From Candidatus Poriferihabitaceae bacterium (lineage in GTDB: Bacteria > Pseudomonadota > Gammaproteobacteria > Arenicellales > Poriferihabitantaceae), in NCBI GenBank assembly GCA_965214055.1, contig OZ243931.1, positions 1,169,186 to 1,233,185 on the forward strand: a DNA stretch of 64,000 nt, given 5' to 3'. The translations under genes and the position numbers were made by a program. This document shows positions 15,482 through 55,318 of this stretch, piece by piece. The stretch's first letter is position 1. Every line of letters begins with the position of its first letter. The notes beneath the pieces are model-generated. The model saw only the letters and a list, made by a program, of their open reading frames with translations. It had not been told where the DNA came from and did not search any database.

Positions 15482-16318
15482 TCAACCCATGCTCTCGCAA
15501 ATCAGGTCGATAATATCTTTTTCGTCACGCATGTCAAAGATTCTGTCGGCTTCAATGACATACCCATATTTCTCCGCCAGCAATTCGTAATGGGGCTTGC
15601 GATACATGATCAATTTCGGAAATATCCACTGGGCGAACTCGTCCGGCACAATTTCATCGGTAGACCGCAGGGCATTTTCCTCAAGATAGGCTGAAAGCTG
15701 GCTGTCCAGGAATCGTTCCCCGTAAAACAACGGTTTCGGCTTGTGCCGGGCCCGTTGGATCAGGGTGTGTTCCATGTCGTCGCTGGCATGCAGATACAGT
15801 ACTATGGTTTTTCGGGACAATTCCGACCAGCATTCTTCGTCGGACAGGGTGCAGATGCTGCCCCCGGCATCGTTGACAAAGTGGGAATAGCCATAAATAT
15901 TCCTGGCTTTTTCCATGAACACCGGCACATCCGCCATTGCACGAACTTCTGCAGCCCGGAACAGTCCCTGGCGCCGCTTGAACTCCTCCACAGACAATCC
16001 ATCCAGCTCCGGGTTTCCAATCTTGCCGAGAAAACAGGCCAGGGGGTGCAAATGATCAATGGTGATATTGTTGCGAATATAGATGGAATCCGTTAGCAGC
16101 AACTGACGTAAATAGCGGTTTTCCATTGCCTTCTTCTTGACATCGTCCAGGATCGGTTCATCCAGATATTTGGTGCCGATGCGGTAATCCCCTGAAAAAT
16201 GAAACCAGGAACTGCGGGGTAGCTTAGCGGATATGGTCGTCTTGCCAACCCCCGACATTCCCAGCAGGGTAATCGCCTTGTTGGGACACTGTCTGAATTC
16301 TTTGGCCGTCTTCTTCAT
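15482..16318 (-). CDS. uncharacterised P-loop NTPase / kinase-like protein
   Basis: A Walker A motif (ITLLGMSGVGKTTIS) sits near the N-terminus of a 278-aa soluble protein. It lies immediately upstream of and co-directional with the metA-like gene. No further family was recognised. Confidence 0.6.
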   Translation of the reverse strand: MKKTAKEFRQCPNKAITLLGMSGVGKTTISAKLPRSSWFHFSGDYRIGTKYLDEPILDDVKKKAMENRYLRQLLLTDSIYIRNNITIDHLHPLACFLGKIGNPELDGLSVEEFKRRQGLFRAAEVRAMADVPVFMEKARNIYGYSHFVNDAGGSICTLSDEECWSELSRKTIVLYLHASDDMEHTLIQRARHKPKPLFYGERFLDSQLSAYLEENALRSTDEIVPDEFAQWIFPKLIMYRKPHYELLAEKYGYVIEADRIFDMRDEKDIIDLICESMG

Positions 16319-16352
16319 GCGAACCGATGGATTGATAACACGAGAGGGGATT

Positions 16353-17150
16353 CTACAGGAAGACCACCAGTAAAATCACACCAAGTGCCACCCGGTACAG
16401 GGCAAACGGGGCCAGGCCAAACTTTTCCAGGTAGCGCATGAAATAATGGATGCACACCAGGGCCACCAGGGCCGCGATACCGGTTGCGAATGCGAGGATT
16501 GGCCAGTTGACCGGGCCGGGCTCGGCCACCAGGCCCCGTGCCTGCCAAATACCGGCCATGGCGATCACCGGGATGGCCAGCAGAAAAGAAAACCGGGCCG
16601 ATGCCCGTCGGTCCAGGCCCATCATCAACCCGGCGGAAATCGTGACCCCGGAGCGGGAGGTCCCGGGAATCAGGGCCAGTATCTGTGCACCGCTGATAAA
16701 CAGCACATCCTTCCAGTTGATGGATTCGACCTGTCTTTTTTTCGTTCCGTACCGATCAGCCAGACCCAGCAAAATCCCGAAGAAGATGGTGGCAACCGCG
16801 ATGGATACCGGATTTCTCAACCTTGTCTCGACAAAGTCCTCCAACACAAACCCGGCCAGTCCAATCCACACCGAGGCAAAAACGATGCACCAGGCAAGAT
16901 GGCTGTATACGGTGGTTGGACCACCGGTCAGCGACCGGAACCAGTGGCTCAGAATCAAGCCGATATCCCTGCGAAAATAGACCACCGCCGCAACCAGAGT
17001 CCCCACATGAACGGCCACATCGAATGCCAGTCCCTGGTCCGTCCAGCCGAACAGGGACGGGGCCAGCGCAAGATGCCCGGAACTGGAAATCGGGAGAAAC
17101 TCCGTTACACCCTGGACCAAGGCAAGCCAGAAGGCATGTGACCACTCCAT
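16353..17150 (-). CDS. uppP: undecaprenyl-diphosphate phosphatase
   Basis: QGVTEFLPISSSGHL and PGTSRSGVTISAGL are the two BacA/UppP signature motifs. The protein is polytopic. Confidence 0.93.
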   Translation of the reverse strand: MEWSHAFWLALVQGVTEFLPISSSGHLALAPSLFGWTDQGLAFDVAVHVGTLVAAVVYFRRDIGLILSHWFRSLTGGPTTVYSHLAWCIVFASVWIGLAGFVLEDFVETRLRNPVSIAVATIFFGILLGLADRYGTKKRQVESINWKDVLFISGAQILALIPGTSRSGVTISAGLMMGLDRRASARFSFLLAIPVIAMAGIWQARGLVAEPGPVNWPILAFATGIAALVALVCIHYFMRYLEKFGLAPFALYRVALGVILLVVFL

Positions 17151-18322
17151 TACAACCGCCCTACCCGATTATGCATTGCAAATCCACGTAAACTCCGAGC
17201 ATGATTTTTACCAAAAGCAATCACTTTAAACAACTCGCCCATCTCGTGAGGCAGGGTAAGTTTCTTGATTTCCTGGGCAACTCTCAGCGTGTCCCGGGTT
17301 GGGTGGTGGTCATCCTGCAGGTCCTGCAGATCATCCAGCAGTCCCAGTAAAAGCAGGAAACTGCCTTGCGTCGTATAGCCGATGGTTTCCAGCCCGGCGC
17401 GTTGTCCGGCCTGCTGAATGGCCGTGAAATCGACATGCGCTGAAATATCCTGTATGCCGGGATAAAAAAAGGGGTCGGTGTGGGCCACGTGCCGGTAGTG
17501 GCACATCAGCGTGCCATCGCTTCGGTCCGGATGATAGTATTCGTGCCGGGGAAACCCATAGTCACACAATAGCACAACCCCGGAATTCAGCTTTTCTCCA
17601 ACGGTCCGAACCCAGGCTTCGGCGCAGTCTCCGATTTCACTCCGGTACCCCGCCGGCAAAGCATACCGGGACAATCGGTCTGCGTGGGGTGCCGTCAACC
17701 GGTTTTCGCTCACGGCCCACACAAGCCCGTTTTCGCCATGCATCACTCCGACTTCCCGGGGTTCCCCCTGAGTGTCCACCTCAAAACGGGTGACCGGCAT
17801 GGCATCCAGAAGTTCATTGGCAATGATCACGCCGCTCACACCGTCCCCGGGGAGGTCTGTTCGCCAGGAAACCCGGTCGGCACAGGTCAGGGTTCCCTTC
17901 TCAATCGTGCGTTGCTGCCTGGCCCTGAGGTCCGGGCTCGGTTCAATGATCCAGTATTCGTCAGGCAGCCCTCCGGCCGCTTCAGCCGCCTGAAGAAAAT
18001 CCCGGGAAAACTCCCCGGTCCCGGCACCATATTCCACAACAATCCGGTCATCGGCGGGTTTCATGGTCCGGAAGATTTCGCCGCATTGCCGGGCCATGCA
18101 CCGGGCAAAAAGCGGTCCCATCAGGGGGGCGGTAACGAAATCCCCTGCATTGCCGAATTTGACAGCCCCGGCACTGTAGTATCCCAGCCCGGGGGCATAG
18201 AGCGCCAGCTCCATATACCGATCAAAGCCCATCCAGTTTCCGTTGGCATGGATCTCGCTGGAGATGACGTCATGCAGCATTGATGAATGCCGGACCTGGT
18301 CTTTGCTGGGTTCATGGAACAT
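17150..18322 (-). CDS. MidA/NDUFAF7-like class I SAM-dependent methyltransferase (DUF185)
   Basis: FDRYMELALYAPGLGYYSAG, GDFVTAP, EYGAGTGEF and ANELLDAMP are present. The start is uncertain, with in-frame ATGs at 18322 and 18280. The ORF-track start at 18427 looks like an extension. Confidence 0.75.
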   Translation of the reverse strand: MFHEPSKDQVRHSSMLHDVISSEIHANGNWMGFDRYMELALYAPGLGYYSAGAVKFGNAGDFVTAPLMGPLFARCMARQCGEIFRTMKPADDRIVVEYGAGTGEFSRDFLQAAEAAGGLPDEYWIIEPSPDLRARQQRTIEKGTLTCADRVSWRTDLPGDGVSGVIIANELLDAMPVTRFEVDTQGEPREVGVMHGENGLVWAVSENRLTAPHADRLSRYALPAGYRSEIGDCAEAWVRTVGEKLNSGVVLLCDYGFPRHEYYHPDRSDGTLMCHYRHVAHTDPFFYPGIQDISAHVDFTAIQQAGQRAGLETIGYTTQGSFLLLLGLLDDLQDLQDDHHPTRDTLRVAQEIKKLTLPHEMGELFKVIAFGKNHARSLRGFAMHNRVGRL

Positions 18323-18474
18323 GGAATACCGACACCTTGAGCTCGGGGTTGGGCCATAGCGACCCTGTGGACTGGACCTGTGAACCTTACGGGATTCGTC
18401 CGGGTCAATCAATCCGCATTGCCGCAATCAAAACCTGACGGGGTATAATCCACGCCAAACCTCCTGCAAGGAAC

Positions 18475-19218
18475 ATGAAAAAACTGGAAGACAACGTCGC
18501 GTTAATCACCGGCGGATCCCGCCGGATCGGGGCCTGTACGGCAAGGTACCTGCATTCGAAGGGCATGCGAATCATCCTGCACTATCACCGCAGTTCCGTG
18601 GATGCGGAAAACCTGCAGACAGAACTGTGTGAAATTCGGCCCGACTCGGTGGTCTTGATACAGGGCGACCTGAAAAGGATCTCGGAAATGAAATACCTGG
18701 TCCGTGAATCCGTACACAAACTGGGAAGGCTGGATGCCCTGGTAAACAATGCATCCGCTTTTTACCCGACCCCCCTGGCCACCGCCACCGAAGACCAGTG
18801 GCAGGCGATCATGGAGACCAACCTGATGGCGCCTTATTTCATTTCCCAGGCCGCCGCCCCCTATCTGGCGAAAAACAAGGGGGTCATCATCCACATGACG
18901 GATATTTACGCCGGCCGCCCGCTGCCCGGCCATTCCATTTATGCCGCATCGAAAGCGGGACTGGTCTCCCTCACCAAGTCGCTGGCCCAGGAACTGGGTC
19001 CGGACATCCGGGTCAATGCCGTGGCCCCGGGTGCCATTCTCTGGCCGGAACATGCCACGGATGAAATTTCACAGCAACGAATGATTTCCAGGACCCCCCT
19101 GAAACGCGCGGGGGAGCCTGAGGACATCGCCAAAACCATCTATTTTCTCATTGCCGGTTCCCAGTATATCAGCGGCCAGGTCATCCGCGTCGACGGAGGA
19201 CGTACCACGATGCCCTGA
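18475..19218 (+). CDS. pteridine reductase-like short-chain dehydrogenase (FolM/PTR1 type)
   Basis: ALITGGSRRIG...ILHYHRS, NNAS and YAASKAG...L (SDR Tyr-Lys) are present, with the C-terminus GQVIRVDGG. Confidence 0.8.
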   Translation: MKKLEDNVALITGGSRRIGACTARYLHSKGMRIILHYHRSSVDAENLQTELCEIRPDSVVLIQGDLKRISEMKYLVRESVHKLGRLDALVNNASAFYPTPLATATEDQWQAIMETNLMAPYFISQAAAPYLAKNKGVIIHMTDIYAGRPLPGHSIYAASKAGLVSLTKSLAQELGPDIRVNAVAPGAILWPEHATDEISQQRMISRTPLKRAGEPEDIAKTIYFLIAGSQYISGQVIRVDGGRTTMP

Positions 19219-19476
19219 AGCATGTCCGATCACTGCCCCGGGAAACAAACCGGCGGTGCGCTTTTCCCTGGAAGGTCCTCTTTGAGCCTGGGCAGTTGTG
19301 CCGAAGTGCCCTCGAAACTGGTGTTCGTGAGATCATACAGACGCTTGAGCGCAACAGCTAAAGACCGCTTAACCCTGTGAATTACCAAATCACAAACACA
19401 TGCTGCACTATGCCGATTTTCAATTTCCCGACAGACAAGGTCAGGTAACAGGGTCATCCGTTCAGGAGACTGCTGC

Positions 19477-21099
19477 ATGAGCGATTTCATGTTAATGGAA
19501 CCCGCCAATCAAAGTCTGGCGGAACTGCTGGGTACCGGGGTCAAATATGTCGTGCCGCGTTTTCAGCGGGATTATTCCTGGGAGCAGGAACAATGGGAAG
19601 ACCTGTGGGCGGATATCCAGAATCTGGAGCGGGAAGGCTATCACTACATGGGGTATATCGTCCTGCAGAGAAAAAGCCAGCATGATTTTGAGGTGATTGA
19701 CGGACAGCAGCGTCTCGTTACCCTCTCTTTGCTGGTTCTGGCAGCAATGCGGCACATCGGGCAACTGGTTGATAAAGATGGAGAGGTAGAAAATAACCAG
19801 GAGCGTTTAAAAGAGATTGCCGGACGCTACATCGGCTCAAAAGATATTATTTCGCTGCGAGTCAGCAGCAGACTGACGCTGAACCGCAACAATGACCACC
19901 TCTACAAGGACATATGCTCCAATCTCCGTGTGCCCCAAAGCCGGGGGGGCATGGTAACCAACAGGCTCTTGGGCAGGGCATTCAGATTTTTTTGCAACAA
20001 GAAGACCGGGGCCTGCGGTGAGGACATTGCCGCGTTCATTACCCGGTTTTCATCCAGGCTGATTTTCACAAAAATCGTGGTGCAGGACAGTCTGAATGCC
20101 TACAAAGTATTCGAAACATTGAATGCCCGAGGGGTGCAGCTTTCCACCCCGGACCTGTTGAAAAACTACATTTTTTCAGTAGTCAGCCAGAATGACAATG
20201 TGCCCGATGAAACACTGGATGATCTTGATGAAACCTGGTCGATTATCCTGGGCCAATTGGGCGGAAACAACTTTACGGATTTTGTCCGCTATCACCATAA
20301 CTCCCACAGGGCGTTCTCAACCAAGAGAGAGCTGTTCAAATCGGTCAGGCAACTTTACACCCTGCCTGAACAGGCGCATGGCTATCTGCAGTCATTGCTG
20401 GATACTGCGCCTGTATACGCCTCCCTGTCTGAACCTTATGACGAATGGTGGCAACGGGATGACGGAAGGTGCCGGGATGCCGTACATTTTCTTGAAGGCC
20501 TGAAGCTGTTCAGGATACGCCAGCCTTATACCGTGCTGATGGCAGCATTCCAGCAGTTCCAGCCAGATGAGTTCATCAAGACTTTAAAATATATCTATAG
20601 CCTGTCTATCCGTTACAATGTGATTTGCGGCTATTCGGCAAATGAGCAGGAAAAGCGCTACAACAACATCGCCATGCGGATATCTTGTGGCAAATTCCAG
20701 CGTGCAAGTCATGTCAAGAATAGCCCTGACTATCAGGCTATCTATCCCGCAGATGAAACATTCAGAAATGCCTTTGAGTACTACAAAATGCCAAGTCGGC
20801 GCTCATCCAAAAAAATCCGGTTTTTACTGGCTGACATCGAAAGCCGTTCAGGCCAGCGTGTCAACTACCTGGACACGACACTTGAACATGTCTGCCCCTA
20901 CAATCCAGACCAGGACTGGCATCAGTATTTTGGGGAGGGAGCCAATGATATTGCAGACCGCCTGGGCAATATGGTGTTGCTGCAACAAGACGACCTTGGC
21001 CGCACAGATTTTGCTACAAAAAAGCCTGTTACCGTGACACTCCGTTCACTCTGGCTAAAAAGGTTGCCGGGTATGGAGACTGGGACTTGCCGACCCTGA
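19477..21099 (+). CDS. DUF262 (ParB-like NTPase) + DUF1524 (HNH-like) protein, GmrSD-type putative type IV restriction enzyme; the 3' end appears frameshifted
   Basis: The N-terminus has PRFQRDYSWEQEQWEDLW and IDGQQRLVTL (DGQQR motif). The C-terminus has LEHVCP...RLGNMVLL. After ~21030 the family-typical tail continues in another frame to a stop at 21155. Confidence 0.82.
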   Translation: MSDFMLMEPANQSLAELLGTGVKYVVPRFQRDYSWEQEQWEDLWADIQNLEREGYHYMGYIVLQRKSQHDFEVIDGQQRLVTLSLLVLAAMRHIGQLVDKDGEVENNQERLKEIAGRYIGSKDIISLRVSSRLTLNRNNDHLYKDICSNLRVPQSRGGMVTNRLLGRAFRFFCNKKTGACGEDIAAFITRFSSRLIFTKIVVQDSLNAYKVFETLNARGVQLSTPDLLKNYIFSVVSQNDNVPDETLDDLDETWSIILGQLGGNNFTDFVRYHHNSHRAFSTKRELFKSVRQLYTLPEQAHGYLQSLLDTAPVYASLSEPYDEWWQRDDGRCRDAVHFLEGLKLFRIRQPYTVLMAAFQQFQPDEFIKTLKYIYSLSIRYNVICGYSANEQEKRYNNIAMRISCGKFQRASHVKNSPDYQAIYPADETFRNAFEYYKMPSRRSSKKIRFLLADIESRSGQRVNYLDTTLEHVCPYNPDQDWHQYFGEGANDIADRLGNMVLLQQDDLGRTDFATKKPVTVTLRSLWLKRLPGMETGTCRP

Positions 21100-21278
21100 A
21101 CCGCCATCAATCCTGGCTTGCAGATCAGGCGGTGAGAGTCTGGCGTGTAGATTGACCCGCTTCGTTTAAATGATTTCCATGAATTTCACTCCTATGGAAC
21201 GAGAGACCACGGCGAATGGAACAGTGAAGACCCCGTGCTACGGCAGTGGCGGGTTGTGGAATTTTCCGAGACGAGCGA

Positions 21279-22334
21279 ATGAAGACTGACGTCGGAATCT
21301 GGAATATCGACCAGAAATGCCGGGCCGGACGCAAGCTTGATGTCGCCGACCGGCTTGAGACGGAAGAGATGCTGGAAGAGGTTCTGGTGAAGAATCCCGA
21401 CATGCTGATGCGCGGACTCACGCTGATTGGCAGACAGGTACCGATAGAGACCGGATACATCGACCTTCTTGGTATCGACGAGGACGGGCGACTGGTGGTC
21501 TTTGAACTAAAGCGCGAGAAGCTCAGGCGCGATGCCGTGGCACAGATACTGGATTACTGCACTTGGTTGGAGACCCTGGCGGATTCGCAAATCTCAGATC
21601 TTATCGCCGAGGAATCCGGCAAACATGGGACGACAAAGATTACAGACTTTGATGAATGGTATGCAAACCAGCCCGGAGACAGCATCAGGCCCATCAGGAT
21701 GGTGCTGGTCGGCTTGGGAATCGATGCCAGCGCCGACCGAATGGTTGAGTATCTGGCAGCACGGAACATCGACATCAGGCTCTTGACCTTCCACGGCTAT
21801 ACACTTGGCACTGGCTTGCTGTTGGCCAGGCAGGTACGGACCACAGCGGATGCCCGTCCGTCCACCGATGGTCGCCCAAGCGCCAGCACCTTGAATCGAA
21901 AAGCCACCGAGTTTGGCGTGGCCGATATCTGGCAGGACGCGCAAAAATCATTGGACTACGGAACCGGAAAGTACTATACACAGTCCGGCATTACCTTCCA
22001 GCAGCGAACGATCACACTCCCCGACAAGGTGCGTGCCCGCGGATCGCATTCCATATCAATCGACAGGCCGGAAATGGTTCGAATCACTTTCTATCCAGCG
22101 GCTGTAGACCTCGGTTGGAAACGCCTAAAAGAGTTGAAGAAGGTAATTCCGTTCAAAGAGGAGAAGCCGCCAAATGCACCCGCCACGCGTCGGGCCCCGA
22201 AGCAATGGTATTGCCACCTTGACGAGGATTCCTGGAACAGCGGAAAGGCCCATCTAGTCGAGTTCGTGGGGCACATAGACGACGCCTGGCGCGCCCGTGA
22301 ACACACTGTTTCCGAAGAAGCCGAGGAATCCTGA
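21279..22334 (+). CDS. NucS/DUF91-like PD-(D/E)xK nuclease-domain protein with unrecognised C-terminal half
   Basis: EEMLEEVLVKNPDMLMRGLTLIGRQVPIETGYIDLLGIDEDGRLVVFELKREK...AVAQILDY has the D...ExK core and surrounding pattern of NucS-type domains. Residues ~190-351 were not recognised. The start was trimmed to MKTDVGIW. Confidence 0.62.
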   Translation: MKTDVGIWNIDQKCRAGRKLDVADRLETEEMLEEVLVKNPDMLMRGLTLIGRQVPIETGYIDLLGIDEDGRLVVFELKREKLRRDAVAQILDYCTWLETLADSQISDLIAEESGKHGTTKITDFDEWYANQPGDSIRPIRMVLVGLGIDASADRMVEYLAARNIDIRLLTFHGYTLGTGLLLARQVRTTADARPSTDGRPSASTLNRKATEFGVADIWQDAQKSLDYGTGKYYTQSGITFQQRTITLPDKVRARGSHSISIDRPEMVRITFYPAAVDLGWKRLKELKKVIPFKEEKPPNAPATRRAPKQWYCHLDEDSWNSGKAHLVEFVGHIDDAWRAREHTVSEEAEES

Positions 22335-22563
22335 CGAAAGAAACACATACTCGGACCCATGGCAATACGAGACAGGTTCAGGGCCTGGTACGTGCTGTTC
22401 GGGAATGGCCCGGCTTCGCAGACAATCCTTGTTCGTGAATATTTCGAGCGGCACTGGGCGTGCTTCAAAGTGGAGGCGCAAAAAATAACCCCTTCACACA
22501 ACCATAACAACTATTCCGCCACGAGCTAATAATCTGTCTGGACCGGTTATTCCCCTTTGGTAT

Positions 22564-23538
22564 TCAGGGAATCAGAACCGTAGACCCCGTGGTCGCCCGT
22601 TCTTCCAGGTCGCGGTGAGCCTGCGCGGCTTCCGATAACGCGTACGTCTGGTTCACGGCCACCTTGACTGCCCCGCGGCCAACCGCCTCAAACAGGCGCC
22701 CGGCGCCCTCTTCCAGCAAATTGCGGGTGGCCGTGTGGCTTGCCAGCGTCGGCCGGGTGACATACAGCGACCCCTTGGGTGCCAGTATTGCCGGGCTGAA
22801 CGGCTCAACCGGTCCAGAAGCGTTACCGTACGTGGCCAGCACACCGAAGGGCCGAAGGGAATCCAGGGATGCCTCAAACGTGGCCTGGCCAACCGAGTCA
22901 TAGGAGACCGCCACTCCTTCTCCCCCGGTGAACTCCCGGACCCGTTCCGCGATGTTCTCTTCGCGGTAAAGGATAATATGTTCAGCCCCGTTGGCCTTGG
23001 CCAGTTCCGCCTTTTCCTGCGAACCCACACAACCAATGACCCGGGCGCCCAGATGCCGGGCCCACTGGCAAAGGATGAGCCCGACGCCTCCTGCCGCCGC
23101 CAGCACCAGAATCGTGTCGCCCGCTTTGACCGGGTACGTCCGAAACAGAAGATAATGCGCCGTCAGCCCCTTTAACATCATCCCGGCTGCCGTCCGGTCA
23201 TCAATGGCATCCGGCAGTTTCAGCAGTTTCTCCGCTGCGATTCGCCGCCTTTGCGCATAGGCGCCCGGCACCATGGCATACGCAACCCGATCGTTGACCT
23301 GCAGCCCTTCGACACCCTCACCAAGGGATTCAACAACGCCCACAGCTTCCATGCCCAGCACGGCGGGCAACCCGGCCACGGGATAAAGACCGGTACGCAT
23401 GTACACATCAATAAAATTCAGACCCACTGCAGACTGCCGGACCAATGCTTCTCCGGGTCCGGGGTCCCCCACCTCAATTTCATCCCAGCTCAATTGCTCT
23501 GGCTCCCCTGGTTGATGAATGCGTATGGCATGGGTCAT
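22564..23538 (-). CDS. qor: NADPH:quinone oxidoreductase (zeta-crystallin-type MDR)
   Basis: GLNFIDVYMRTGLYP and LAAAGGVGL (nucleotide-binding site) are present. It is 324 aa and lacks zinc-ligand Cys clusters. Confidence 0.87.
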   Translation of the reverse strand: MTHAIRIHQPGEPEQLSWDEIEVGDPGPGEALVRQSAVGLNFIDVYMRTGLYPVAGLPAVLGMEAVGVVESLGEGVEGLQVNDRVAYAMVPGAYAQRRRIAAEKLLKLPDAIDDRTAAGMMLKGLTAHYLLFRTYPVKAGDTILVLAAAGGVGLILCQWARHLGARVIGCVGSQEKAELAKANGAEHIILYREENIAERVREFTGGEGVAVSYDSVGQATFEASLDSLRPFGVLATYGNASGPVEPFSPAILAPKGSLYVTRPTLASHTATRNLLEEGAGRLFEAVGRGAVKVAVNQTYALSEAAQAHRDLEERATTGSTVLIP

Positions 23539-23845
23539 AAGTCAGCCCTCTGTATCAGGTTTGAATTTGAATTGAAATAACGGGAGCCCGCCTTGAATTG
23601 AAGCCCTTTTCCCTGGAGATCCACCCGGCTGGTTCCTGCCCGTCAAGTGTATGGCGTATCGGCCCGGTTGGCAACGCATCTCCCCCGGAAACCGGGGCCA
23701 CTTCCCAGCAGCTGGCTGCACCGGACCTCCACGGATTCCCGGCATACAGAATCGGATGTTGATCTGCTCAATAGTTCAAAGCATGGCTCCCTGCTCATGT
23801 AAAATCAGAAGATCACCCTGTTTATCGACAATCATTTTCCAGGCC

Positions 23846-24328
23846 ATGTCCAGTCGCATCATTTCCTTTGCCGGATTCATCACCTGCTTCGCGCTTATCG
23901 CCATTGCCCTGTACTTCCAGCATGTTGAAGGGCTCGACCCCTGCCCCCTGTGTATTTTCCAGCGAGTAGCTTTTATTGTCATGGGCCTTGTCTTTCTGGT
24001 TTGCTTTTTGCACAACCCCCGAAGGCTCGGACAACGCATCTATGGCCTGCTGGCAATCCTCAGCGGACTGTCTGGCGCCGCCATTGCGGGCCGGCATGTC
24101 TGGCTGCAAAACCTGCCCGAAGATCAGGTTCCGGAATGCGGACCCAGTCTCGAATTCATGCTGGATGTCTTTCCCCTGGTCCAGGTACTGGAAACCGTGC
24201 TGAAAGGTTCCGGAGAATGCGCTGAAATCTCCTGGACCCTATTGGCGATTTCCATGCCGGGATGGAGCCTGATCTGGCTGATCCTGCTCACATTGCTGTC
24301 CCTTCGACTGGTATTTCCCAGACCATAG
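23846..24328 (+). CDS. dsbB: disulfide bond formation protein B
   Basis: There are four TM segments. PCPLCIFQR (first Cys pair) and VPECG...GECAE (second periplasmic loop cysteines) are present. The start was trimmed to MSSRIISF. Confidence 0.85.
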   Translation: MSSRIISFAGFITCFALIAIALYFQHVEGLDPCPLCIFQRVAFIVMGLVFLVCFLHNPRRLGQRIYGLLAILSGLSGAAIAGRHVWLQNLPEDQVPECGPSLEFMLDVFPLVQVLETVLKGSGECAEISWTLLAISMPGWSLIWLILLTLLSLRLVFPRP

Positions 24329-24910
24329 ATGTCCCTTGCCACCCTGACCAGAGAGATCCGGCGGTGCCGGCTTTGTGAACCGGTGCTTCCAGAAGGCGCC
24401 AACCCGGTTTTTCGTGCCGCACCGGGTGCAAGAATCCTGGTGGCGGGCCAGGCTCCCGGGATTCGTGTCCACAACACCGGGATTCCGTTCAACGACCCCA
24501 GCGGTGACCGGTTGCGGCAGTGGATGAACGTCGACCGGGCCACCTTTTACGACCCCGGCAAAATCGCCATCATTCCCATGGGGTTCTGTTATCCGGGAAC
24601 GGGAAAGAGTGGCGACCTGCCCCCCCGACCGGAATGTGCCGACACCTGGCGGGCAAAACTGCTGGGCTTTCTTCCCGCAATCACGCTGACTCTTGCCATC
24701 GGCCAGTATGCCCATCGGTATCATCTTGGCCGCCAAAGAAAGAAAACCCTGACCGAAACCGTCAAATGCTGGCGAATCTATGGCAAAAACATGCTGCCGC
24801 TGCCTCATCCGAGCCCACGCAACAACATCTGGTTGAAAAAGAATCCGTGGTTCGAAGAAGAGGTCATCCCCGAGTTGCGGGACCGGGTGGCCGGGCTGCT
24901 GAACGACTAA
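24329..24910 (+). CDS. uracil-DNA glycosylase superfamily protein (family 4/5-like)
   Basis: CRLCE near the N-terminus, ILVAGQAPG, and a C-terminal LPHPSPRN motif fit the UDG superfamily architecture. The start codon directly follows the dsbB stop. Confidence 0.78.
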   Translation: MSLATLTREIRRCRLCEPVLPEGANPVFRAAPGARILVAGQAPGIRVHNTGIPFNDPSGDRLRQWMNVDRATFYDPGKIAIIPMGFCYPGTGKSGDLPPRPECADTWRAKLLGFLPAITLTLAIGQYAHRYHLGRQRKKTLTETVKCWRIYGKNMLPLPHPSPRNNIWLKKNPWFEEEVIPELRDRVAGLLND

Positions 24911-24948
24911 TCCGTCCCCCGCTTCTGCTATGAAACCATGCCGGTGCG

Positions 24949-50615: not shown

Positions 50616-53135
<2,520 letters not shown>

Positions 53136-54118: not shown

Positions 54119-55222
54119 CTACATTCTCATGGGCATCACCAGCCACACGGAATGTTTGTCTCCGGGTTCCCGGAGTACGCAAATTCCATTGTTTCCCTGA
54201 AAATGCATTTCAATTTCGTCTGTTTTCATTGCCTTGGCGGCTTCAACCAGGTAATTGAGATTATACCCCATTGTAAGCGGTTCTCCGGAATACTGCAGTT
54301 CCAGTTCTTCCAACGCTTCTTCATTGTCGGGATTGGTGGAGGTAATTCGCATTACGCCGGGTTCCAGCGCAACTTTCGCTCCCTTGAACTGGTCCACCGT
54401 CAATACAGCGATCCGGTTCAGGGTTCCAATCAATTTCTGCCGATCCAGAACAACCGATTCCTGGATATCCGTTTCCACCACTTCCTTGAATTTCGGAAAA
54501 TTCCCGTCGATTAATTTGGTGATAAGCATGGTTTTCCCCTTGCTCACCTTGAGGTGATTCTTGTTCATCTCCAGCGTCAATTCCTGGTCTTCGTCCACAT
54601 CCAGAAACCGGTTTATTTCCGTAATGCCTTTTCTCGGTATAATCAGTTTCCGGTGGTCTGCGGAATCCAGACTGGTCCCCACATCTGTCTGGGCAAGACG
54701 GTGTCCATCCGTCGCAATGGCACGCAGCGTATTGTCATTCAATTCGAACAACAACCCATTCAGGTAGTACCGGACATCCTGGACAGCCATGGCAAAAGCG
54801 GTTTTTTCCAGAATGGTTTTAAGTGATATCTGCTTGATTTTAAACCTTTCTTCCCAATTGTGAGCCTCAATCCTTGGAAAATCATCGGCTTCCAGTGTCC
54901 GCAGTGTATAGCGGCTTCTGCCCGATGTGACGGTCAGGTTCAAATTATCACGTACTATGGAGATAACGGCATGTTCAGGTAACATACGCACAATATCAAG
55001 GATTATACGGGCTGATACGGTAATTGCGGAATCTTCCCCTTCAACCTGGTCTATGGTTACGGAAATCTCGACTTCAAGGTCAGTTCCCACCAGAGTCAAC
55101 TGGTTGTCCACCAGACTCACATGCAGATTGGACAGGATAGGAAGGGTCTGTTTCTTCTCGACAACGTTTGTTACCAGATTCAGCGCTGGAAGAAATTTTG
55201 ATCTCTCTATAGTTATATTCAT
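54119..55222 (-). CDS. dnaN: DNA polymerase III beta sliding clamp
   Basis: MNITIERSKFLPALNLVTNVVEKKQTLPILSNL and RLIDGNFP-type blocks are present, with a ...MPMRM C-terminus. The start was trimmed to MNITIER. Confidence 0.96.
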   Translation of the reverse strand: MNITIERSKFLPALNLVTNVVEKKQTLPILSNLHVSLVDNQLTLVGTDLEVEISVTIDQVEGEDSAITVSARIILDIVRMLPEHAVISIVRDNLNLTVTSGRSRYTLRTLEADDFPRIEAHNWEERFKIKQISLKTILEKTAFAMAVQDVRYYLNGLLFELNDNTLRAIATDGHRLAQTDVGTSLDSADHRKLIIPRKGITEINRFLDVDEDQELTLEMNKNHLKVSKGKTMLITKLIDGNFPKFKEVVETDIQESVVLDRQKLIGTLNRIAVLTVDQFKGAKVALEPGVMRITSTNPDNEEALEELELQYSGEPLTMGYNLNYLVEAAKAMKTDEIEMHFQGNNGICVLREPGDKHSVWLVMPMRM

Positions 55223-55318
55223 GTCATATATCTTAAGAATAGTTATAGTTAAGCACTGTGGGTTTGTGGGGAACTTCAATATAACGCATTTTTTCAATTA
55301 CTTAAAACCGGAACGTCT

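Follow-up and report, generated by a model that had tools for sequence, protein, structure and literature searches.

Two nuclease genes, one GmrSD-like (gene 1) and one NucS-like (gene 2), lie side by side between a folM-like gene and a quinone oxidoreductase gene (qor) in an Arenicellales-like gammaproteobacterial lineage. Do they form one two-gene defence system, or are they separate cassettes that share a slot? We analysed this islet in a stretch of 64,000 nucleotides (the window) together with related genomes. The reading that we prefer, with a probability of about 75%, is that the folM-like/qor interval is a strain-variable defence hotspot of independent single-gene nuclease cassettes. 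The islet represents a defence hotspot of the ordinary kind rather than a new two-gene system, and its two nucleases, unrelated to each other, are of probable anti-phage type.

The two nuclease genes and the frameshift in gene 1

The folM-like gene (+) and qor (-) are a convergent pair bracketing the islet (Table 1), and the folM-like protein is 97% identical in amino acids to that of genome L001 and 90% to that of L002. An earlier note, made from the letters of this DNA, described two co-directional plus-strand genes flanked by about 230-260 bp of non-coding DNA; this layout was confirmed, with flanks measured at 258 bp on the left (19219-19476) and 229 bp on the right (22335-22563). No known RNA family was found in 18900-22900, and promoter and terminator consensus scans gave nothing exceeding shuffled expectation. 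Two small ORFs, one of 56 aa in the right flank (22359-22529) and an antisense one of 92 aa (19230-19508), have no family support and were treated as non-genes.

Table 1. Features of the folM-like/qor interval (positions in the window)
Feature	Position	Strand	Evidence
Left anchor: SDR / pteridine-reductase-like (folM-like) housekeeping gene, 247 aa	18475..19218	+	Pfam adh_short_C2 9.7e-50
135-bp spacer; L103 has a 2-kb Mrr_cat restriction-endonuclease cassette at the same position	19235..19369	.	window/L103 alignment
Gene 1 5' region moving with the gene; RBS-like CAGGAGAC 7 nt before ATG	19370..19476	+	conservation in relatives
Gene 1 as it reads: 540-aa truncated GmrSD-like (HEC-06 family) DUF262+DUF1524 nuclease	19477..21099	+	Pfam, PADLOC
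Gene 1 full span, frameshift repaired, 559 aa	19477..21155	+	-1 frame, HEC-06 HMM
A6 run then G (zero-frame heptamer A AAA AAG), 1-nt deletion site	21018..21024	+	comparison with relatives
Exchangeable module C: gene 2 plus 59 nt upstream, minus last 22 nt	21220..22312	+	alignment break to L001/L102
Gene 2: 351-aa NucS-domain PD-(D/E)xK nuclease with family-specific C-terminal domain (PDC-S11-like)	21279..22334	+	Pfam, PDB, PADLOC
Right flank, 251 bp, in all islet-bearing relatives, absent from the empty-site genome	22313..22563	.	alignments
Right anchor: quinone oxidoreductase-like Zn-ADH (qor)	22564..23538	-	Pfam ADH_zinc_N + ADH_N

Gene 1 encodes a GmrSD-like nuclease with DUF262 and DUF1524, and it belongs to the HEC-06 family. 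Both domains named in the earlier note were matched, GmrSD_N (PF03235) at E 1.8e-35 over aa 16-233 and GmrSD_C (PF07510) at E 1.6e-7, and the motifs were located at aa 29 (FQRDYSW), 75-79 (DGQQR), 470 (EHVCP) and 497 (GNMVLL). In the ORF as it reads, the GmrSD_C match covers profile positions 2-88 of 138 because of a frameshift, and the repaired ORF regains the remainder of the region. The PADLOC model of HEC-06 (PDLC04154) matches the ORF as read over profile positions 1-526 of 569 (E 2.7e-188) and the repaired ORF over positions 1-567 of 569 (E 2.7e-202). The second-best PADLOC model is 'Orf5'. Homologues of gene 1 are 557-565 aa long, and an identical 540-aa product is in the public record (P0121).

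The A-run at 21018-21023 is A6 in the window and A7 in L001, L102 and L103, and L104 has no run. By the shift of frame the last 43 residues are lost and the 540-aa product ends in 24 aberrant residues, while the -1 frame runs on as ...KKACYRDTPFTLAKKVAGYGDWDLPTLNRHQSWLADQAVRVWRVD, followed by a stop codon. An intact HEC-06 ORF of about 559 aa is therefore not present in gene 1 as sequenced, which may be an assembly error. The 1-nt deletion in the A7 run would mean that gene 1 is inactivated, weakly expressed or mis-assembled, and, without an intact gene 1, half of the islet or more may lack a function. This frameshift had escaped the earlier note.

We give nearly even odds to the alternative that there is no real lesion, the frameshift being either a long-read homopolymer miscall or a site of -1 ribosomal slippage on A AAA AAG; this estimate concerns the intactness of gene 1 alone and stands outside the total of the other explanations. 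A miscall would fit a 1-nt length change in an A7 run, and the contig names of the relatives appear typical of long-read metagenome assemblies, but this is the sole window-specific homopolymer indel against three relatives (39, 22 and 13 runs of at least 6 nt compared) and the sole coding indel across about 20 kb aligned. A -1 shift on the heptamer would yield exactly the conserved C-terminus of gene 1; however, since the A-run is missing from L104, nothing indicates that frameshifting is programmed. Changes on the lineage of the window copy (16 non-synonymous to 6 synonymous, against 28 to 29 for L103) suggest relaxed constraint, as would follow a genuine lesion, but the difference is not significant and the dN/dS analysis does not decide the matter. 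The frameshift is also a caution: broken or mis-assembled genes can enter automated counts of defence systems in long-read MAGs.

For gene 2, alignment of homologues places the true start at ATG 21279, not at GTG 21246. NucS_C (PF01939) was matched at E 1.6e-12, and D62, E76 and K78 as well as Q89 and Y93 are invariant in 30 homologues, which bears out the NucS-like PD-(D/E)xK core seen in the earlier note. Among the NucS/EndoMS structures in PDB, 2vld was matched by sequence (2.1e-9), and 5gke and 2vld by fold (Foldseek, both at 1.7e-6; AlphaFold pLDDT 81). The dN/dS of gene 2 against L103 is 0.17.

Slot contents in related genomes and origin of the islet

Four states of the slot were found, namely empty, GmrSD with a 581-bp cassette, GmrSD with NucS-like, and Mrr with GmrSD and NucS-like, indicating a modular defence hotspot in which an empty site (L002) and alternative contents (L001, L102, L103) occur at the same position. 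In L002, whose flanking genes are about 85% identical, qor lies directly next to the folM-like gene, the arrangement that the earlier note had proposed to look for, and the two are separated by a 449-bp spacer unrelated to the islet. The alignment of the window to L002 ends exactly at the folM-like stop codon and resumes exactly at the qor stop codon. No similarity was detected between this spacer and the window flanks (word size 7), so the empty site does not allow the insertion borders to be placed exactly.

In L001 and L102, the GmrSD gene is followed by an unrelated 581-bp segment in place of gene 2. The final 22 nt of gene 2 are still there in L001, which places the swap junction within the gene. 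The small ORFs of this replacement cassette have no Pfam, NCBIfam or PADLOC match and are left unnamed for that reason; by eye they resemble a toxin-antitoxin remnant. The slot of L103 holds Mrr_cat, GmrSD and NucS_C: positions 17000-19234 and 19370-24796 of the window align to it, its extra segment (L103 2904-4898) encodes a 345-aa Mrr_cat protein, and its module C is about 93% identical to that of the window at the nucleotide level. The right flank (22313-22563) is 93-96% identical to L001, L102 and L103, does not align to L002, and has no match in Pfam, NCBIfam or Rfam.

The computed GC and k-mer profile upholds the lower-GC islet of the earlier note for gene 1 and not for gene 2. The GC content of gene 1 is 50.1% against a window background of 56.1% (z -2.4, 4th percentile), with a tetranucleotide distance of z +4.4. 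Gene 2 is at 55.8% (z -0.1) with a moderate tetranucleotide deviation (z +2.8), and because its GC is normal, its foreign origin has to be read from cassette behaviour and k-mers. The line of 45 G+C per 60 nt formerly taken from qor for contrast overstates the difference because qor is itself unusually GC-rich (61.7%, 99th percentile).

Gene 1 has relatives at other sites (L104, L105, L106 and L107). For example, the copy in L104 is 82.6% identical in nucleotides including its own 5' region, which is also conserved in L001 and L103, and lies beside unrelated genes; gene 1 proteins of 74-78% identity are likewise found in unrelated contexts. Both genes match PADLOC defence models. Together with the empty slot of L002, the varying cassette mixes and the atypical composition of gene 1, this supports the earlier proposal of a horizontally acquired mini defence island. 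The cassettes at this slot would be gained, lost and swapped by recombination, which is the mode of acquisition that we infer. The integrase, direct repeats and tRNA target of an integrative mobile element or classical genomic island are absent: no repeat pair, direct or inverted, brackets the islet, there is no tRNA gene in the window, and no integrase ORF lies in 19219-22563. Plasmid collections gave 10 distant matches to the N-terminal domain and nothing more, and phage collections gave no matches.

An islet ancestral to the lineage and deleted in L002, that is, old resident DNA not acquired horizontally, is unlikely. Gene 1 does occupy the same slot in four related genomes, the GC of gene 2 is host-like, and integrase, att-like repeats and tRNA gene are lacking; moreover, with one empty-site genome only, the direction of change cannot be set, and the empty slot of L002 could have arisen by deletion and not be ancestral. 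Ancestral DNA would, however, hardly be expected to include a gene 6 points lower in GC and a strong tetranucleotide outlier, with its cassette and 5' region standing beside unrelated genes in L104 and similar proteins in other unrelated contexts, nor would genomes with flanks 93-96% identical be expected to differ in what the slot contains.

Pairing of the two nucleases and the family of gene 2

The earlier note considered that the two nucleases may act together and suggested the co-occurrence of their families as a check; such joint action was not supported. None of the 84 loci (72 distinct) holding gene-2 homologues matches the HEC-06 HMM. In a census of 101 immediate-neighbour ORFs from 72 distinct gene-2 loci, GmrSD is absent from the 25 families listed, each found in at most 4 of the 101 ORFs. 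Conversely, no NucS_C neighbour was found in the gene-1 homologue contexts outside this locus (0 of 4; L104-L107), and gene 1 is kept in L001 and L102, which have lost gene 2. The pair recurs only in L103, a close relative, at the same locus and with about 93% nucleotide identity, which reflects shared ancestry and is not independent evidence. A two-gene GmrSD and NucS-like system adjacent across unrelated genomes was thus not found.

These counts bear directly on the possibility of one cooperating system co-transcribed from the gene 1 promoter, in which, for example, the GmrSD protein senses or cuts modified DNA and the NucS-like enzyme processes the products. The absence of co-occurrence has already largely refuted it, and we regard it as very improbable. 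The genes are co-directional, the gap before the ATG of gene 2 measuring 179 bp if counted from the gene 1 stop as read and 123 bp if counted from the repaired one, and no plus-strand terminator-like site was found in the whole scanned region, the gap between the genes included, so gene 2 may still be co-transcribed with gene 1. Besides the same pair in L103, GmrSD-type sequences occur near two gene-2 homologues: a DUF1524 (GmrSD_C) protein lies directly upstream of the one in L020, and a GmrSD_N fragment is found 3.5 kb from the one in L018. On the other side, HEC-06 protects as a single gene (bioRxiv 10.1101/2024.01.29.577857). The best reading is that each gene is an independent cassette.

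As independent cassettes, the two enzymes would work separately on substrates that are so far presumed for both. In cassette B (gene 1), the DUF262 domain (ParB-like NTPase, DGQQR) may drive or license the C-terminal nuclease, a putative DUF1524 His-Me-finger (EHVCP...N), which would cut phage DNA, probably modified, by analogy with GmrSD and BrxU. Gene 2 (cassette C) would be a stand-alone nuclease, with a catalytic NucS-type PD-(D/E)xK domain (D62, E76, K78) joined to a C-terminal domain whose most likely role is to determine target recognition or gating.

Gene 2 has 830 homologues (full-length protein, E <= 0.001) of about 351 aa, starting with MKTD. The C-terminal domain (aa ~200-346; about 150 aa; 93 cluster representatives) occurs solely in proteins that share this architecture and are about 350 aa long, and has no solved structural relative. 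The best PADLOC match is PDC-S11 (E 6.7e-39) over profile positions 1-188 of 358, without PADLOC's own coverage thresholds. Around the homologues, restriction-modification, Abi, NERD, HNH, DRT, SAVED and transposase genes are abundant. NERD and HNH_2 are the commonest Pfam families in the census, in which restriction-modification, Abi and transposase are also listed, and there is no recurrent partner. From the above, gene 2 probably has an anti-phage role. A more specific and tentative reading, to which we give somewhat less than even odds, is that it represents an uncharacterised single-gene anti-phage nuclease family with the C-terminal domain as a new sensor or gate for foreign DNA. Still less likely than this is that the heptamer A AAA AAG lets the frameshifted GmrSD gene yield both a truncated and a full-length protein. 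It is the widespread gene-2 family, conserved at full length, that is worth an experiment, rather than the pairing.

That gene 2 is a housekeeping NucS/EndoMS mismatch-repair endonuclease and not a defence gene is hardly credible, for although some sources label its homologues 'endonuclease NucS' and the nuclease domain matches NucS/EndoMS structures, model positions 128-203 alone of the NCBIfam NucS equivalog models align (60.1 bits against a cut-off of 216 for NF003270, and 29.8 against 252 for NF002876), the protein has no NucS N-terminal domain but a different C-terminal domain of 150 aa, the gene is missing from the close relatives L001, L102 and L002, and elsewhere its homologues sit amid restriction-modification, Abi and transposase genes.

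At this locus, a small and clear-cut case of a defence hotspot lying between two convergent housekeeping genes, close relatives within an uncultured marine lineage exchange nuclease cassettes of one gene each.

Comparison with known systems

Gene 2 has a weak fold resemblance to the nuclease of Shedu SduA (8ps5), which is not significant (E 0.12). With NucS/EndoMS (2vld, 5gke) it shares the PD-(D/E)xK domain and the conserved D...ExK...Q...Y residues; it differs in lacking the NucS N-terminal domain, in falling far below the NCBIfam cut-offs, in its unrelated C-terminal domain, and in being accessory, not core. PDC-S11, a 'guilt-by-embedding' phage-defence candidate of PADLOC, is similar in being a single gene of similar length in defence-rich neighbourhoods, but the N-terminal half of the profile alone aligns and the C-terminal domain of gene 2 is subfamily-specific.

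Gene 1 resembles the type IV (modification-dependent) enzymes GmrSD, BrxU and SspE, a class marked by NTP-dependent cleavage of modified DNA (for example with glucosyl-hmC), in GmrSD_N plus GmrSD_C (the latter matched in part), the NTPase-like DGQQR and the His-Me-finger motif, but it is distant from them, the PADLOC models of SspE and mREase_IV giving 1e-16 to 1e-11 against 1e-188 for HEC-06. HEC-06 (Hma-embedded candidate 06) is a GmrSD-like single-gene anti-phage system (Payne et al., bioRxiv 10.1101/2024.01.29.577857), which is reported to be 23.7% identical to BrxU over a coverage of 11% and to lack the RLFDS motif, and in which mutations of Q79/R80 (DGQQR) and E471/H472 (EHICP) abolished defence (bioRxiv 10.1101/2024.01.29.577857). 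Unlike HEC-06, gene 1 is not embedded in Hma, BREX or type I restriction-modification and stands alone between housekeeping genes, and this copy is frameshifted, with the loss of the last 43 residues of the DUF1524 region. Repaired, it matches HEC-06 over the full length with the same order of DUF262, linker and DUF1524 in about 559 aa, and DGQQR and EH(V/I)CP lie at almost the same positions, the essential residues having counterparts in Q78/R79 and E470/H471 of an almost colinear alignment.

Variable contents of the slot between the SDR gene and qor

The interval 19219-22563 forms a small defence hotspot, in which each nuclease cassette consists of one gene and is independent of the others. 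In the window, it contains two plus-strand ORFs bounded by convergent housekeeping genes: gene 1, a GmrSD-like (DUF262+DUF1524) nuclease gene, and gene 2, a NucS-domain PD-(D/E)xK nuclease gene. The non-coding stretches described in an earlier note measure 258 bp and 229 bp. Among public genomes, an Arenicellales (Gammaproteobacteria) MAG comes nearest in the flanks, with 97% amino acid identity in the SDR gene and 94-96% nucleotide identity to the window across about 20 kb.

Features of the slot, its surroundings and the corresponding slot in related genomes
Feature	Location	Strand	Remarks
SDR/pteridine-reductase-like housekeeping gene	18475-19218	+	left neighbour
Gene 1 as read, 540 aa	19477-21099	+	Pfam GmrSD_N E 1.8e-35, GmrSD_C E 1.6e-7
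Gene 2, 351 aa	starts ATG 21279	+	MKTD start in 30/30 aligned homologues
56-aa ORF (MAIRDRFRAWYVLFGNG...)	22359-22529	+	inside 251-bp right flank common to all islet-bearing genomes
Zn-dependent quinone-oxidoreductase-like gene (qor)	22564-23538	-	right neighbour
gyrB	50616-53081	-	
dnaN	54119-55297	-	
dnaA	55521-56864	-	
Mrr_cat restriction-endonuclease-like gene, 345 aa	L103 3017-4054	-	left part of slot
581-bp replacement segment	L001 12794-13374; L102 6745-7325		overlapping small ORFs, 107 aa + 86 aa

Comparison of the slot with five related loci revealed four states, that of the window included. In L002 (about 85% nucleotide identity in the flanks), the SDR gene adjoins qor across a 449-bp spacer unrelated to the islet. 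In L001 and L102, gene 1 is intact, and the sequence after it, in place of window 21220-22312, is an unrelated segment of 581 bp. The window has gene 1 and gene 2, and in L103 an extra 2-kb Mrr_cat endonuclease cassette replaces window 19235-19369 and is followed by gene 1 and then by gene 2 (the latter at about 93% nucleotide identity), which gives three nuclease cassettes in series. The Mrr_cat gene matches PADLOC models weakly (PDC-S02, 1.4e-8; nuclease end of ZorD, 6.6e-6). The earlier suggestion of a mini defence island is thus supported, with one relative empty and the others holding different contents.

The final 22 nt of gene 2 are still found in L001, and therefore gene 2 was probably the earlier occupant there and was swapped out later. 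The ORFs of the 581-bp segment match nothing in Pfam, NCBIfam or PADLOC; one of them ends with ...IDFLITWNFRHIAN..., which by eye is like the C-terminus of a PIN-type toxin, and the segment may be what is left of a toxin-antitoxin pair. The islet has no integrase and no repeats that bracket it, and the window contains no tRNA gene. Homologous recombination via the conserved flanks would be the likely route of cassette exchange.

Gene 1 also occurs outside this slot. Together with about 100-140 bp of upstream sequence, it is found at 82.6% nucleotide identity in L104, next to a different nuclease gene, and L105 and L106 encode proteins 74-78% identical in unrelated contexts.

Mobile elements were observed near the slot in two relatives. 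In L001, the Arenicellales MAG, a 1.3-kb insertion (15810-17115; ORF 15887-17086) encoding a TnpB / IS605 OrfB protein with a Cas12f1-like TNB domain lies in the 3' end of a UDG-family gene, at the equivalent of window 24747-24841; this gene is intact in the window (24329-24910). In L103, a DDE_Tnp_1 transposase is located just past the same gene.

The 56-aa ORF in the conserved right flank has no family match and is probably not a gene. It is also open in L001, where about 8 of 56 residues differ by eye.

The islet had been described as lower in GC, which holds for gene 1 (50.1%; background 56.1%, z -2.4) but not for gene 2 (55.8%; z -0.1). In tetranucleotide composition, gene 1 is an outlier (z +4.4), at a distance reached by 0.7% of background windows, and gene 2 a moderate one (z +2.8). 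The qor gene, at 61.7% GC, is at the 99th percentile. GC falls below that of gene 1 only at 54-57.5 kb (45-50% GC), where dnaA, dnaN and the probable replication origin lie. Since the minimum of cumulative GC skew (about 54-55.5 kb, just before dnaA) falls in the dnaA-dnaN-gyrB region, the window probably includes the origin of chromosome replication, at a distance of about 35 kb from the islet.

Co-occurrence of the two nuclease genes

None of the 84 loci with gene-2 homologues (72 distinct) contains a match to the HMM of the HEC-06 family, to which gene 1 belongs, and gene 1 lacks a NucS_C neighbour in all four contexts known from outside the slot (L104-L107). Elsewhere, the pair was found only in L103, a close relative, at the same locus. 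In a census of the 101 ORFs directly flanking gene-2 homologues, no recurrent partner was detected: the 25 families listed, each of which accounts for at most 4 of 101 ORFs, include no GmrSD family (NERD 4, HNH_2 3, further NucS_C paralogues 3). Also among these neighbours are genes for restriction-modification (type I, IIG and ISP), Abi, DRT, SAVED and transposases. Individual contexts are in line with the census, except that in L020 a DUF1524-only protein lies upstream. The pairing of gene 1 and gene 2 is not a system; of the two options in the earlier note, joint action fails on co-occurrence, the criterion set in that note itself, and independence of the two nucleases stands.

Tandem pairs of NucS-like paralogues were observed in some metagenomic loci (L035 7878-9992, L036 2372-4657, L045 7848-9506).

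A candidate NucS-domain family with an orphan C-terminal domain

Gene 2 is a member of a candidate NucS-domain family related to PADLOC PDC-S11. Of the whole islet, only this family, whose C-terminal domain is an orphan, could bring something new. The start conserved in all aligned homologues places the beginning of the gene at the ATG, not at GTG 21246. Residues about 29-185 form a NucS-type PD-(D/E)xK domain (Pfam NucS_C, 1.6e-12), similar in sequence to P. abyssi NucS (2vld, 2e-9) and EndoMS (5gke, 1e-7); using Foldseek, the AlphaFold model (mean pLDDT 81) matches both structures at 1.7e-6. D62, E76, K78, Q89 and Y93 are invariant among the 30 aligned homologues, and dN/dS against L103 is 0.17, indicating purifying selection. 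Gene 2 is not an orthologue of NucS: it reaches 60 bits where the cut-off is 216, and it lacks the N-terminal domain of NucS.

Residues about 200-346 form a second, confidently modelled domain (pLDDT about 85-95), for which no relative was found in Pfam, NCBIfam or PDB. When all 1.84 billion representatives were scanned, it was detected in 93 proteins. The full-length matches are about 345-390 aa long, save one of 461 aa, and the domain is always at the C-terminal end (positions about 200-355; in the protein of 461 aa, 308-444), so that it is restricted to one architecture. Distant gene-2 relatives and the PDC-S11 profiles match only the N-terminal half, which suggests that in such proteins the nuclease is constant and the C-terminal module varies. 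PDC-S11 is itself a "guilt-by-embedding" candidate, and the likeness of gene 2 to it is limited to that N-terminal half.

Gene 1, its frameshift and the HEC-06 family

Gene 1 adds a new member to the validated HEC-06 GmrSD-like family, one that is frameshifted in the window. As read, it matches the PADLOC HEC-06 model at E 2.7e-188, while the SspE and generic type IV models reach only 1e-16 to 1e-11. Of the 569 positions of the HEC-06 profile, the match covers those up to 526, and GmrSD_C breaks off after 88 of its 138. The product has the same truncated length of 540 aa in the public record (P0121). With one A added back, the repaired gene 1 (559 aa) covers positions 1-567 of 569 (E 2.7e-202), and its length fits all 119 other homologues listed (553-586 aa). 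In the window, the -1 frame runs on with ...KKACYRDTPFTLAKKVAGYGDWDLPTLNRHQSWLADQAVRVWRVD* to 21155. The site is an A6 run (21018-21023), which is A7 in three relatives; a fourth (L104) has no run.

The odds that the frameshift is a genuine lesion, and not one miscalled base in an A7 run, are near even. A miscall of this kind is entirely plausible. However, the A6 run is the sole window-specific homopolymer indel against the three relatives (runs of >=6 nt compared: 39, 22 and 13) and the only coding indel across about 20 kb aligned. Lineage-specific changes in gene 1 (16 non-synonymous and 6 synonymous in the window, 28 and 29 in L103; difference not significant) give a hint of relaxed constraint on the window copy. 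Most of the window-specific amino acid changes (11 of 16) fall at aa 125-189, the linker between DUF262 and DUF1524, and this cluster may mark a short tract of recombination or a part of the protein that is hypervariable. A AAA AAG in the zero frame is the classical -1 slippery heptamer known from dnaX and IS elements, and a -1 slip there would yield the exact conserved C-terminus; programmed frameshifting is nevertheless without any pointer because L104 lacks the A run.

Two more 1-nt homopolymer differences, both apparently non-coding, separate the window from L001, at 9919 (A5 vs A6) and 24916 (C5 vs C6); L102 equals the window in length at 24916, so that difference is specific to L001.

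HEC-06, a GmrSD-like protein, shielded E. coli against phages as a single gene, and protection was gone after mutation of Q79/R80 (DGQQR) or E471/H472 (EHICP) (bioRxiv 10.1101/2024.01.29.577857). The gene 1 protein likewise has DGQQR at 75-79 and EHVCP at 470-474. In L107 (Methylotuvimicrobium sp. KM2, CP150634.1, 1-11686), a HEC-06 homologue 62% identical to gene 1 has on one side a 1648-aa Eco57I-like methylase protein together with a 440-aa unknown, and on the other a 2121-aa DEAD/Helicase_C/MZB protein. Such embedding in a large defence system is the setting in which HEC-06 was originally described.
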